DNA of 64,000 nt from a virus. The DNA lies in IMG/VR virus record IMGVR_UViG_3300050025_000126, positions 32,001 through 96,000 of that record. One strand, given 5' to 3'. The notes beneath the pieces were generated by a model. That model made no database searches. It was not told the DNA's origin and was given only the letters and a program-made list of their open reading frames with translations. Both the position numbers and the translations under genes were made by a program. Position 1 is the first letter of the stretch. Every line of letters starts with the position of its first letter. Below are positions 59,976 to 64,000 of this stretch, in pieces.

Positions 59976-60161
59976 TTAGTTCAATACTATCGTTGCTTCT
60001 GCTTCTTGTTTTACTTGTGCTACCGACTTGCCCAAAAGGGTCTCTAGAAACACCAGATGCTTGTGTTGGTGTTCAAGTAATTGTAAACTAGAGTTAAGCT
60101 CCCTGGTAAGCTGTCGGATTAATCTTTGGTCTCTTGTGAGCGGCTTACTTTGTTTCTTCAT
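59976..60161 (-). CDS. small coiled-coil protein
   Basis: Overlaps the dnaE-C end. Confidence 0.4.
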   Translation of the reverse strand: MKKQSKPLTRDQRLIRQLTRELNSSLQLLEHQHKHLVFLETLLGKSVAQVKQEAEATIVLN

Positions 60162-62427
60162 CTTTTACCTTTTCTACGGGGCCTCTAATTAATTGTAATT
60201 TGCGGAAACTCCAGCCTTTGTTCAAGTCGGTTTTGGTAATTACTCCGACTATAATTGAACCGACCTTCAAATTCGTTACTTCTGCTGGGTATCCTCCATC
60301 TTGACCTGGCCATGATACCACTTCTTTTTTGAAACCGCAAGCGTCGATGAAAACTTTCTTGGCCGACTTGGATTTGTTTTGGTAGGAGAACGTCTCCAAA
60401 TTGTCTACATGTCCTACAATTGCACACTTGAACCCGTTCTGTGGCAGTTCCAACGCCGTGTCCACATCAACAAGGTCTGCTCTACTTACAACCCTATCTA
60501 CTGAATCAACCTCTTCTCTAGCTTCTCTGCTCCAGGCCTTGTAGTGGTAAAGCAAATCTCCCGTTTCGTTTTCGGTAAAATAAAGCCCATCGTTTACCGA
60601 CATCAAATTCCTAATATCCTCTGAATAAGCAGGCAATACATCTTTCTTTACCTGGAAGCGCCCCAATGCGTCTAATGTAGGATATTGGACCTTTGACTTG
60701 TTATACTTTTTCCCTTCTGCCAGCGTATAACGCTTTAGCAGTGTCTGGTATTGCTCGATTCGTTCTGCGATTGATAAATTGGGGTCGAACAAGCTGTCCA
60801 AAATCCCAGCGACAAACAATGTATGCATAGTTCCAATTGTAATAGCACTTCTACGCCACTTACCCTCTACCGCCCCAGCCTTCCTATACTCCACAATCTT
60901 CTTGCAAAAATCGTCTGCCGATTCGTAAGGCGCATATTGATTGAGCTGGGCATGGGCCGTTTCACCAATACCATAGCACAAATCAATAGGGGCTCTAATT
61001 CTATCACCTACAATAGCCCAAGTAGGCTTAGACAATTTGATATCTGGTAAGTCTACGATATTTTCGACGTAAGGCCAGAATTTTTCTGTCACTTCTTCTT
61101 TTTTAGCGTTTTTTAATACGCTACACCACCACTCTAAGGGATAGTAATGCTTGAGCCAGGCACAAGCATAAGAAATAACTACATATCCCACACTGTGTGC
61201 TTGGCAAAAAGAGTAAGCAGAAAATTCGAGTAAGCCAGACCACACTTCTTTTGCCTTATTTAATCCAATCTTAGGTGCGGCACGTTCGGTGAAAAAGGTG
61301 TATAATTTTGCCATTTCTTCGGGCTTCTTTTTTGCTGACAATCGGCGAAACGCTTCCGCTTCGCCTCCTGTACACCCGGTTAGATTTTGATAAACCTTCT
61401 GCAACCCCTCCTGGAATACAATTAGACCATAGGTGTCAGGAAGAAGAGCGTCAAATTCTGGTAAAATGTCTTTACTACCAGGAAGGCCTCTAACCCTTCT
61501 AGCGTACTCTACTAACAGATTGTGTTTCTGCCCTGGTACGTCTGGATTGCTGACCACATAATTAAGCGGTCCAGGGCGGTCCAGGGCGGTAAAAGCTGCC
61601 ATAGCCGCAATGCTATTGATTCCAGGAGTACCGTCGGGCCTTATGTGGTTAAATTGTCTTAGCCACTGAACGGCAGATGCTGTGTTATACTGAAATACGG
61701 TTTCTGTTTTACCTTGACTGACATCTTTGTACACATCTAGATCTGTCGGAAGGTCCCAGATATCAACAAAATTATGGGAGACAGGGTCTAGAACAAGCCG
61801 GTGAGAGGGCACCTTGCGACCGTTTACGTTTTGTTCTACGGGGGACAATTGATTCTTTCTGCTGGCAATCAATTGTAAACACGATTGAATGTCCCTTAAA
61901 CACAGCACGACAAGAAAATCAAACTTTAGAGCGCCTACATTTTCAATTTCTGAACCAGTAAAGGCTGTTACCTTAATTCCAGATACGGACGTAATAGGGA
62001 TAAAGTCACTGATTGGTTTGGGAGCAATTACGAATGCAGAAGCGTGCCTTCCTCTTTGACGTGGAAGTGCTAGTGCAGACTTGGCTATAGCCCACTGTTC
62101 TGGATATTTACTAATGTAGGTCTTTAGGGCCTCGTCCCTCTCGATGCTGCCCTGATGGTTGCCTTCATCGTCAGACCATCCCATGATAAACCTTAGGTCC
62201 GAAAGCCCCTGAGGAGGCATTTCAAATTTCTTTACAAGGTCTTCGATATCTTGAGGGACCACCCCTAGAGTAAAGCGGGCCACGTCCTTAACACTGTTCT
62301 TTAGCTTAAGTGTAGTCAAAACACTTACCTGCGCCTGGCAATCTCCAAATCTTTCCTGAAGCCAGCCAGGGAAATATGGCTTAAGGGTGCCATTTTTAGA
62401 ACTATTTGTTATTTTTGCGAATTTCAT
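60145..62427 (-). CDS. dnaE: DNA polymerase III alpha, C-terminal polypeptide (760 aa)
   Basis: KNSVKDVAR, RGRHASAFVI, LKFDFL, TVFQY, ALDRPGPL, TYGLIVFQE, YSFCQAHS, LKHYYPLEW; ATG 62427 overlaps the upstream TGA. Confidence 0.9.
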   Translation of the reverse strand: MKFAKITNSSKNGTLKPYFPGWLQERFGDCQAQVSVLTTLKLKNSVKDVARFTLGVVPQDIEDLVKKFEMPPQGLSDLRFIMGWSDDEGNHQGSIERDEALKTYISKYPEQWAIAKSALALPRQRGRHASAFVIAPKPISDFIPITSVSGIKVTAFTGSEIENVGALKFDFLVVLCLRDIQSCLQLIASRKNQLSPVEQNVNGRKVPSHRLVLDPVSHNFVDIWDLPTDLDVYKDVSQGKTETVFQYNTASAVQWLRQFNHIRPDGTPGINSIAAMAAFTALDRPGPLNYVVSNPDVPGQKHNLLVEYARRVRGLPGSKDILPEFDALLPDTYGLIVFQEGLQKVYQNLTGCTGGEAEAFRRLSAKKKPEEMAKLYTFFTERAAPKIGLNKAKEVWSGLLEFSAYSFCQAHSVGYVVISYACAWLKHYYPLEWWCSVLKNAKKEEVTEKFWPYVENIVDLPDIKLSKPTWAIVGDRIRAPIDLCYGIGETAHAQLNQYAPYESADDFCKKIVEYRKAGAVEGKWRRSAITIGTMHTLFVAGILDSLFDPNLSIAERIEQYQTLLKRYTLAEGKKYNKSKVQYPTLDALGRFQVKKDVLPAYSEDIRNLMSVNDGLYFTENETGDLLYHYKAWSREAREEVDSVDRVVSRADLVDVDTALELPQNGFKCAIVGHVDNLETFSYQNKSKSAKKVFIDACGFKKEVVSWPGQDGGYPAEVTNLKVGSIIVGVITKTDLNKGWSFRKLQLIRGPVEKVKDEETK

Positions 62428-64000
62428 TGGTTGTTCCACCAAGGAACGAAATCTATGTTTTCTTCTACCACTTTTTTAATAGGAAGTACACCTTTTTCTG
62501 TTTCTACTCGAAAATCTTCCGGGAGAACATGTTTTGTGCCATCTTCCGCCTCAACCTCTACGACATCACAGTCCTTGCCGCAAAGAAGATCTCTATTAGA
62601 GAAATCCAAATCCACGTCTGGCATAGTGTGGGACTTAATTCTGTCCAATGTAAGAAACCTGTCTAGGCTAAGTCCATGTTGAATGGGGTCAATCGAGGTG
62701 ATACCTAACAGATAAGAAAGTAACACACCTCCTGCGCTATTGTGTACCGCGTATTCAGAGGTCAAAAAGGAATGGTCATGTTCAACTTCGAGGTCAAACA
62801 CCTCTTTTATTGATGAATATTCCTTACTTAAAACAGTAGACCAATATCCTATAGTTGATTCATTGGACCATCTAAACTCTATTTTATAACTTCTATTACA
62901 TAGATATTTTCCACGATAAAAAGGCTCTCTTGTATTTACAGACGATGGGATTCCAAACCTTAGAAGAGCTTCCCTAAAAGAATCCTTCAGAAGCACGCTG
63001 GTTGTATCGAAGGTGTAGCTTGGTCTTCCCTTTCCTTTTTTAGGTTTTTTTGTGTGACCATCAGAGTCCATGAGGCCCAGGAGGAGTGATTTTAGCAAAT
63101 TTTTTGGCCAATTCAACCACTCTTTCGGGATGTATTTTGTTCCAGAAGAGTTTTTGTACAACGGAAACAAGCTCCGGAATAGTTTACACAGAATACTTGA
63201 ACTTGCCATCAGCTGAACTAGTTTTTTAGTCTTGTGTTGGACCTCAACAGGTTTAGATACGCAGTAAGGGGCTAGAATGGCTTTTATCTTTTCTATGCCG
63301 TCACGATCTTTTGTGTTGAACGCAACCCCTAGTCGTTGTTCTTTGTTTATCCAACCGTCCCCAATCCACCGACCCAGAAGATAGGAAAAATCTTCAGAGA
63401 CGTTAATATACCTTGGGTGGTTAACAGTTTTGGGGGTCCTCCATTCGTCGACCGTGAGACCAACCTTACTTAGTTCATCGTTTATTTTAGATAAAGCTAG
63501 AATGCTTCTTGTGGCTTTTCTCCCATTTTTCATAACAAGAGGCGGGACGTATCCGTTTCTGACTTTCCCTAGAAAGGTCCTGTTCCCACCGAGACGTCTT
63601 CCTCCAGGTATTTCGCTGATAAAAGTCCGTGAGATAATCTTCGACTCTTCAACGTCCACCCCGTCGTGGACAAACTCAGCCAAGTCTAACGGGTCTGGGG
63701 AAACTTCTTTTACCAAAATTCTAGGAGTGAAAACAACATCTCCGACTTTAAGAGCATCCGCTTCTATCCAGCTCGGGACCCATTTTTCATCTTTCCAAAC
63801 CCTGATACTGGACAGAGTTGATTTGCTGAGCCTTTCCAATCCGGCAATTTTCGATCTTTTGAAACCGTATACTTTGTGGTCTTTTGTTAGAAGAAATGGA
63901 GTGTGTTTGTAGGTTGTCTTAAGCTTCACGCATTCTTCGTCTGTGTTGTATTTGAAAGTGTTCGTAACTTTGCGAACATTTCCCTGGTGGGAGTAAACTT
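62424..64000 (-). CDS. dnaE: DNA polymerase III alpha, N-terminal polypeptide (partial, intein-containing)
   Basis: After the intein: SAGGVLLSYLLGITSIDP....L..DRFL...R....MPDVDLDF; frame runs off the window. Confidence 0.9.
   Translation of the reverse strand, partial: VYSHQGNVRKVTNTFKYNTDEECVKLKTTYKHTPFLLTKDHKVYGFKRSKIAGLERLSKSTLSSIRVWKDEKWVPSWIEADALKVGDVVFTPRILVKEVSPDPLDLAEFVHDGVDVEESKIISRTFISEIPGGRRLGGNRTFLGKVRNGYVPPLVMKNGRKATRSILALSKINDELSKVGLTVDEWRTPKTVNHPRYINVSEDFSYLLGRWIGDGWINKEQRLGVAFNTKDRDGIEKIKAILAPYCVSKPVEVQHKTKKLVQLMASSSILCKLFRSLFPLYKNSSGTKYIPKEWLNWPKNLLKSLLLGLMDSDGHTKKPKKGKGRPSYTFDTTSVLLKDSFREALLRFGIPSSVNTREPFYRGKYLCNRSYKIEFRWSNESTIGYWSTVLSKEYSSIKEVFDLEVEHDHSFLTSEYAVHNSAGGVLLSYLLGITSIDPIQHGLSLDRFLTLDRIKSHTMPDVDLDFSNRDLLCGKDCDVVEVEAEDGTKHVLPEDFRVETEKGVLPIKKVVEENIDFVPWWNNQ
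62739..64000 (-). mobile_element. intein with LAGLIDADG homing endonuclease in dnaE (N-terminal part beyond the window)
   Basis: Block B LTKDH, LLGRWIGDG and LLGLMDSDG, terminal VFDLEVEHDHSF...VHN/S. Confidence 0.92.

Follow-up and report, generated by a model that had tools for sequence, protein, structure and literature searches.

What holds a DNA polymerase together when its gene is broken within the palm? This question is raised by a dnaE gene in the window, by which we mean the whole stretch of 64,000 nucleotides analysed here (bases 32001-96000 of a 107-kb viral contig, IMG/VR record IMGVR_UViG_3300050025_000126). The gene lies on the minus strand as two open reading frames (ORFs) that share an ATGA on the coding strand, and the protein is broken 10 residues past the catalytic DxD motif. 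By DnaE, the nearest cultured relative is Myxococcus phage Mx1, with 40% identity. The break is bordered by an acidic tail and a basic head that resemble pieces of a DnaE-type split intein, and we conclude that together they are probably a splicing-dead relic of half a HINT domain, acting as a non-covalent clasp of the two-chain DnaE. We infer that tail and head bind each other, that this binding is important for assembly, and in which direction the module evolved; the words 'domesticated' and 'clasp' are to be understood in the same sense.

Chain 1 has 1033 residues in total (L002:2424-5525, where L002 is the contig locus that reaches past the end of the window, L002:2739-4073 being 62739-64073 in the window frame). 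It comprises the PHP domain, a LAGLIDADG intein, the start of the palm with MPDVDLDF, and the tail. Chain 2 opens at an ATG (62425-62427, MKFAKITN...) and supplies the remaining palm with KFDFLVV, the fingers, the helix-hairpin-helix (HhH) region and the C-terminal part. The tail counts 13 D/E against 6 K/R (net charge -7), and the head carries a net charge of +4. An upstream TTG at 62442, which the ORF listing gives as the start of chain 2, was rejected; the relatives all start with MK(F/I) at the ATG. An earlier note on this DNA, made from the letters alone and referred to below as the sequence-only reading, had described the overlapping ORFs, the division of the active-site aspartates between the chains and the oppositely charged ends, and all of these are confirmed (Table 1). 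It had also placed the break away from the cyanobacterial split site, and YSFCQAHS is indeed unbroken in chain 2, so the window is split at a different site.

In unsplit relatives, namely Mx1 and many viral contigs, the gene reads straight through, and RDLL and (G)WL are separated by 2-9 residues, in agreement with the proposal that DnaE normally has a few residues here. The gap is ID in L004, VNEEN in L007, VDPEDPTK in L008 and 5 residues in Mx1, while L011 has VGKDAKSG and then YL after the equivalent of RDLL (RELLVGKD...). Because the C-G-K-D that follows RDLL in the window matches this loop, we regard it as native. The 52-residue tail of the sequence-only reading therefore stands as a tail, but the insert itself begins about 6-8 residues later than had been assumed.

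The same reading had aligned the tail with the second half of the Npu DnaE IntN, and profile searches against the sequences of the Protein Data Bank (PDB) bear this out. With a profile of four tails, the first eight places are all taken by Npu-type DnaE split-intein chains (E 9e-4 to 5e-3), tail positions 9-49 being aligned with IntN 55-96. When 13 tails were used, including the divergent short forms, 14 of the 15 top matches were DnaE inteins (E 5.6e-4 to 0.018), and the E-value of the Ssp intein improved from 0.45 to 0.004. All profile matches lie within IntN 55-97, in the same linear order as in the tail.

The predicted fold points in the same direction. We modelled two relatives whose halves are in frame, because the two frames of the window cannot be read through and none of the contiguous forms yielded a DNA locus; the stop was read as Q (TAG in L046, TAA in L052), and the family served as the alignment. 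AlphaFold gave a predicted local distance difference test (pLDDT) of 82.7 and a predicted template modelling score (pTM) of 0.67 for the 86 residues of L046, and 85.3 and 0.73 for the 102 residues of L052. In both models the tail forms four short strands and a helix, followed by a loop with a conserved WW and the break, the long head strand, and then the extein helix; the head strand packs at pLDDT ~85-92. A complex prediction for tail against head scored 0.28, the mark being 0.32, and counts neither for nor against binding. Foldseek against 350,542 PDB chains placed nothing but inteins among the first 18 listed matches for L046 and the first 33 for L052, with DnaE inteins among the best (probability up to 1.0, TMq ~0.5, E 0.04-0.5).

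With VIA-align against 48,161 representatives, the top 27 belong to the HINT superfamily for both models. Among them, gp41-1 reaches Z 6.5 (residues 35-107 of 127), NrdJ-1 Z 5.9 and a DnaE intein Z 5.4-5.7 (residues 45-120 of 140), and Hedgehog and BIL domains are also in the list. The matched range, approximately residues 35-120 of mini-inteins, is their central part and would be essentially the second pseudo-C2 unit with the preceding strands. In both models the break falls in the loop before the IntC-like head strand, which is the same place as the natural split site of gp41-1, located 'at the front of beta6' in the second C2 unit (bioRxiv 10.1101/546465). Homology to the HINT superfamily is thus indicated by sequence profile and by predicted fold. 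The sequence-only reading had proposed such a comparison for the tails, and the uniformity of the resulting lists seems hard to ascribe to chance.

The splicing apparatus, in turn, appears to be gone, as had been noted for the block A lobe, the TxxH and blocks F/G with their HN. The insert has ~65-72 residues, compared with ~125 or more for a complete two-unit HINT fold, and the N-terminal ~45 residues of an intein (block A) and its last ~17 (the end of block F, and block G) have no counterpart in the module. The residue after RDLL, where block A would begin with Cys, Ser or Thr, is C, C, V, V, E, V, V, A, T, T, T, E and V in 13 members. The Cys of the window was considered as intein Cys1 and rejected; the position is variable (V/I/E/A/T elsewhere) and is part of the native loop of unsplit relatives. 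Block B TxxH reads P-E-D-F in the window, with the Thr retained only in L047 (T-S-S-L). At the other border there is no terminal (His-)Asn followed by Cys, Ser or Thr at +1, and the heads run directly into the GWL... of the extein. Neither border has a conserved nucleophile or Asn, and the contiguous forms described below also lack border nucleophiles. Because the block A nucleophile, the TxxH and the terminal HN with its +1 residue are absent, splicing is not expected, and the two polypeptides presumably cannot be spliced.

On the reading that we consider probable, a surface loop of the DnaE palm, ~10 residues past the catalytic DxD strand, would hold an insert of ~65 residues that represents one pseudo-twofold HINT unit, that is, the second half of IntN and the first strand or strands of IntC of a DnaE-type split intein. 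The break in the gene would fall within the insert, in the loop that leads to the long IntC-like strand, a position that is the canonical split or endonuclease-insertion site. Of the original intein, the N-terminal lobe with block A would have been lost, as would the C-terminal end with blocks F/G, His-Asn and +1, and the TxxH would have been replaced. Acidic tail and basic head would then zip into one small beta-rich domain without a peptide bond, possibly assisted by their opposite charges, as proposed for DnaE-type split inteins, and the zipped domain would hold or guide the palm halves so that the three aspartates form one active site. The module looks like what is left of a 'fractured gene' element, in which a split intein is accompanied by a free-standing homing endonuclease; the window would have lost, or never had, the endonuclease gene at the break.

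The window is not alone in this arrangement. The same split, with homologous tails and heads, is found in at least 14 distinct viral contigs, including L003, the closest relative (DnaE 83% identical to that of the window), the long forms L005, L006/L010, L052, L028/L029, L033 and L034, the long form L046 with its halves in frame, and the shorter forms L057, L110, L047, L061 and L069/L070; proteins P0001-P0011 also belong to the family. Because the split recurs in so many independent assemblies with varied junctions, a sequencing artefact is excluded, in particular the indel at the stop and overlap that had been named as a possible objection. A profile search of 1.84 billion proteins contributed P0003-P0011 and, in addition, four DnaEs that have this module in one contiguous chain (P0012, P0013, P0014 and P0016). 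Ankyrin, tetratricopeptide (TPR) and Rib-like repeat proteins in that search were judged to be spurious, as their scores sum over many repeats. A word-index search with the tail yielded two close relatives and no more. Among metagenomes scanned with P0013 there were only insert-less DnaEs and no DNA locus of the contiguous form, and a search of the ESM Atlas with the P0013 insert was uninformative, giving only DnaE-fragment clusters under 0.9. The split with its tails is therefore upheld as a property of a family, but a module unique to the phage of the window, or always split, is not: a contiguous clade exists and L004 has lost the module.

Several features of the family favour the clasp reading. 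All forms split at this site possess the module; inspection of viral and metagenome loci and proteins revealed none that lacks it. The net charge of the tail is -4 to -13 in 13/13 members, and that of the head is +1 to +5 in 10/13. Between the window and L003, the proportions of nonsynonymous and synonymous differences (pN and pS) are 0.22 and 0.95 in the tail, compared with 0.10 and 0.82 in the core; between L005 and L006, pN is 0.26 in the tail versus 0.24 in the core. Judged by these values, tail and head are under purifying selection at a level near that of the polymerase core.

A tree built from the first ~520 residues after the break (the start of chain 2, from GWL) places the module in at least three positions: the main clade, formed by nine split lineages and adjoined by the contiguous clade, L057/L110, and L047/L061/L069, the last placed among relatives that lack the insert. 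The module-less L004 (RDLL-ID-FLEKRYG) groups as sister to the window and L003 with a Shimodaira-Hasegawa-like approximate likelihood ratio (SH-aLRT) support of 99. Because it lies inside the split clade, L004 represents a clean loss of the module. The patchy distribution fits a mobile element with gain and loss. The split may be the older state, weakly favoured by parsimony, as it occurs in all three places and the contiguous form in one clade.

Several points weigh against the clasp reading, some of them concerning its function and others its ancestry. As to function, the contiguous forms keep the module though no clasp is needed in them; L004 works without the module, which is therefore dispensable for polymerase function as such; and the palm halves might associate well on their own, as in phage Aeh1, where the tails of the split NrdA are not needed for the a/b heterodimer (PMC3045599). 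Together with the patchy distribution on the tree and the re-fusion of the gene in L004, these points favour an account in which the module is HINT-derived but has no clasp role. It would be no more than a scar left by a selfish element (intein plus endonuclease), or its landing site, the halves would bind via their own large interface, and tail and head would be tolerated, or kept only since clean removal is rare. We consider this rather unlikely, given that selection on tail and head is near the core level, that charge complementarity is conserved, that no module-less split form was seen among the loci and proteins inspected, and that the models confidently predict packing of the head strand against the tail.

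As to ancestry, the sequence E-values (~1e-3) are modest singly, their weight coming from hits that are nearly all of one kind and collinear, and the structural Z values of 5-6.5 are likewise modest, Z below 8 being weak alone, so that the uniform lists carry the case. The models are of relatives read through a stop, with tails ~50% and heads 54-76% identical to those of the window; both come from the same alignment of ~27 rows, so they are not independent, and AlphaFold may mirror the intein fold simply from local sequence likeness. Among the loci inspected, no relative has a split intein at the RDLL-GWL site that is complete and catalytically competent; of the two kinds of relative that the sequence-only reading had suggested for comparison, the unsplit dnaE was thus encountered but the intact split intein was not. 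Pfam recognised no intein family in the tails (one chance match to SHS2_FTSA, E 0.2), the head profile alone, too short at 21 positions, gave one chance match in the PDB (E 2.2), and the search of 1.84 billion proteins contained no intein at E 1e-3, as expected for ~22 bits in a library that large. An ordinary lineage-specific insertion domain of DnaE, unrelated to inteins, HINT-like by convergence and later cut by endonuclease insertions, would account for such scores (Foldseek E at least 0.04, Z at most 6.5). This seems quite improbable to us in view of sequence matches that are almost all to DnaE inteins, of HINT proteins filling the top 27 of 48,161 chains for both models, of a collinear match with the break at the canonical intein split site, and of endonuclease genes at the break, as in fractured genes.

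These endonuclease genes were found in three relatives. In L003, ~670 bp separate the halves and hold an antisense ORF of 222 residues that matches phrog_1035 (endonuclease VII, E 7e-24) and also HNH families; within this cassette (L003:3278-4000), the endonuclease VII/HNH-like gene runs with its 3' end into the end of chain 1. Just upstream of the chain 2 ATG are a TATAAT box and a GAGG; the downstream half of dnaE seems to be supplied with expression signals by the element itself. In L047 and L061, ORFs on the sense strand between the halves match Pfam Endonuclease_7 (PF02945, E 9e-8 and 2e-10). The ORFs between the halves of L028 (L028:3163-4407) and L034 (L034:2740-3231), of 86, 206 and 164 residues, have no Pfam or PHROG match and may be unrecognised homing endonucleases or cargo. 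In the window, the two adjacent, co-oriented ORFs break at the canonical split or endonuclease-insertion site of HINT, as in a fractured gene, and their ATGA overlap leaves no endonuclease gene between them.

The junctions of the family differ in form. The halves overlap in the window, L005, L006, L033 and L057, and they are separated by inserted genes (0.4-1.2 kb) in L003, L028, L034, L047 and L061. L052 has an in-frame TAA and a spacer of 10 codons. In L046 (2250-2270) the halves are in frame, with a TAG followed directly by a TTG start (...WWESR-TAG-TTG-KITAIT...); a single suppression or read-through event would yield a contiguous DnaE there, and no further in-frame TAG was seen in its two dnaE ORFs. 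Because L028, L034, L047 and L061 have genes between the halves, two-chain enzymes must work in this DnaE family. It is on this ground that we regard recoding, in which a -1 frameshift at the ATGA yields a single-chain DnaE with the module as an internal domain as in P0013, as a very doubtful explanation, despite the contiguous natural forms and the in-frame halves of L046: the overlap (...TGGTGGAACAACCAATGAAA...) has no slippery heptamer, and chain 2 of L003 is preceded by the ~670 bp with the antisense endonuclease gene, the TATAAT and the GAGG. That the module is still an active, highly unusual mini split intein, joining for example RDLL to the S/T of the head, is hardly credible, since the suggestive Cys after RDLL and TN/SS in the window's head are not conserved (C/V/E/A/T after RDLL; TN-S, TN-N, TR-T, TA-R or KP-V in the head), the smallest known inteins have ~125 residues or more, and the TxxH, the terminal HN and, in contiguous forms, the border nucleophiles are absent.

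The reading of a splicing-dead half-HINT clasp can be compared with four known systems. The fractured genes described by Dassa et al. (2009) include three DnaE loci, and their split inteins have all six HINT motifs and five catalytic residues, with an IntN of 88-105 and an IntC of 33-54 residues (PMC2677866). The present family shares with them an essential replication gene in two co-oriented ORFs with HINT pieces at the ends, a break at the canonical split site, oppositely charged IntN-like and IntC-like parts and, in L003, L047 and L061, a free-standing endonuclease gene at the break with promoter-like and ribosome-binding-site-like elements. It differs in that only ~45 + 20 residues are left (~40 + 14 in the short forms), in that no catalytic residue is among them, and, for the window, in the absence of an endonuclease gene.

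The cyanobacterial DnaE split inteins (Npu, Ssp; PDB 4kl5, 2keq, 4lx3 and 1zd7) are the best match in both sequence and fold. Their IntN 55-97 corresponds to the tail and the start of their IntC to the head; they likewise pair an acidic N part with a basic C part, and DnaE is again the host protein. Unlike the present module, however, they are inserted at another site of DnaE (YSF/CQAHS, intact here), and they possess the N1 lobe, the C-terminal strands and the TxxH, so that trans-splicing is not expected of the module.

A third parallel is found in Aeh1, in which an HNH endonuclease gene, mobE, splits NrdA into NrdA-a and NrdA-b; the charged tails are essential for activity, not for heterodimer formation, and Crona et al. 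(2011) proposed them as possible degenerate remnants of a split intein (PMC3045599). In both cases a mobile endonuclease has interrupted an essential enzyme close to the active site, and unique, oppositely charged C- and N-terminal tails are not removed; here, their retention in the mature proteins would follow from the lack of splicing or processing residues. The Aeh1 tails are short and without detectable similarity, whereas HINT ancestry is indicated here by profile and predicted fold; conversely, the function of the tails was tested there and is predicted here from sequence and models.

Engineered splicing-dead split inteins are used as high-affinity pairing and purification tags. Like these, the module would provide a non-covalent association of IntN-like and IntC-like parts without splicing, but the engineered versions keep the whole HINT fold with point mutations, and the natural module has one pseudo-C2 unit. 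In the literature, as far as our incomplete coverage extends, we found no description of a natural non-splicing half-intein at a gene break.

To our knowledge, inteins are thought to persist only while they are able to splice, and a dead one in an essential gene should be lethal or deleted. If the piece described here does hold the chains together, a selfish element can leave a useful protein-protein clasp behind, and the idea of degenerate intein tails, put forward in 2011 for the split ribonucleotide reductase of Aeh1, gains a testable example. One pseudo-symmetric half of HINT could then stand alone, which bears on the proposed origin of HINT by duplication. In a broader version, the half-HINT would be a self-sufficient mobile 'clasp cassette' that folds from two chains (~45 + 20 residues, or ~40 + 14 in the short forms L047, L061 and L057), travels with endonuclease genes and renders the fracture harmless without splicing. 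We put this forward tentatively, as a possibility somewhat short of even. If true, nature would have a third way, next to introns and inteins, of coping with fragmented genes; the cassette would directly support the guess of Crona et al. on Aeh1 NrdA, and would offer a natural minimal heterodimerisation tag, the short forms being candidates for small pairing tags.

Table 1. Positions of the features of the split dnaE in the window.
Feature	Position	Strand	Remarks
dnaE chain 1, 3' part	62424..64000	-	Pfam DNA_pol3_alpha, E 9e-11; ORF ends at TGA 62424-62426
LAGLIDADG intein in chain 1, full-size, 445 residues, CLEGD...AVHN/S	62739..64000, on to 64073	-	separate from the putative clasp
MPDVDLDF in chain 1, two of the three active-site aspartates	62601..62624	-	aligns with PDxDxD of all relatives
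Acidic tail of chain 1, 52 residues	62427..62582	-	first ~6-8 residues (CGKDCD) native loop; remainder (VVEVEAEDGT...FVPWW) like the second half of IntN
Overlap (ATGA) in which chain 1 stops and chain 2 starts	62424..62427	-	sequence
Basic head of chain 2, 20 residues, MKFAKITNSSKNGTLKPYFP	62368..62427	-	long beta-strand and loop like the start of IntC, predicted to complete the half-HINT module
dnaE chain 2, 760 residues from ATG	60145..62427	-	rest of palm, fingers, HhH, C-terminal part
KFDFLVV in chain 2, third aspartate	61906..61926	-	sequence
YSFCQAHS in chain 2, cyanobacterial split site, intact	61192..61215	-	sequence

Other inteins occur in these genomes. The LAGLIDADG intein of chain 1 occupies the RG/SAGG site, ~50 codons upstream of the half-HINT tail, and extends 73 nucleotides past the end of the window. 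The L003 orthologue is without it, and this site is also occupied by an intein in L011/L026. The phage of the window has another intein (C...SN/C), with LAGLIDADG-like motifs, in its ribonucleotide reductase gene, which lies on the minus strand outside the window (L002:11010-13904). The genome thus has at least two live-looking inteins besides the apparently dead half-module. In L028, chain 2 (L028:4404-6158) holds a further intein (...AVAHN/CSHATAYSF) at the site equivalent to that of the cyanobacterial DnaE split intein, which is intact in the window.

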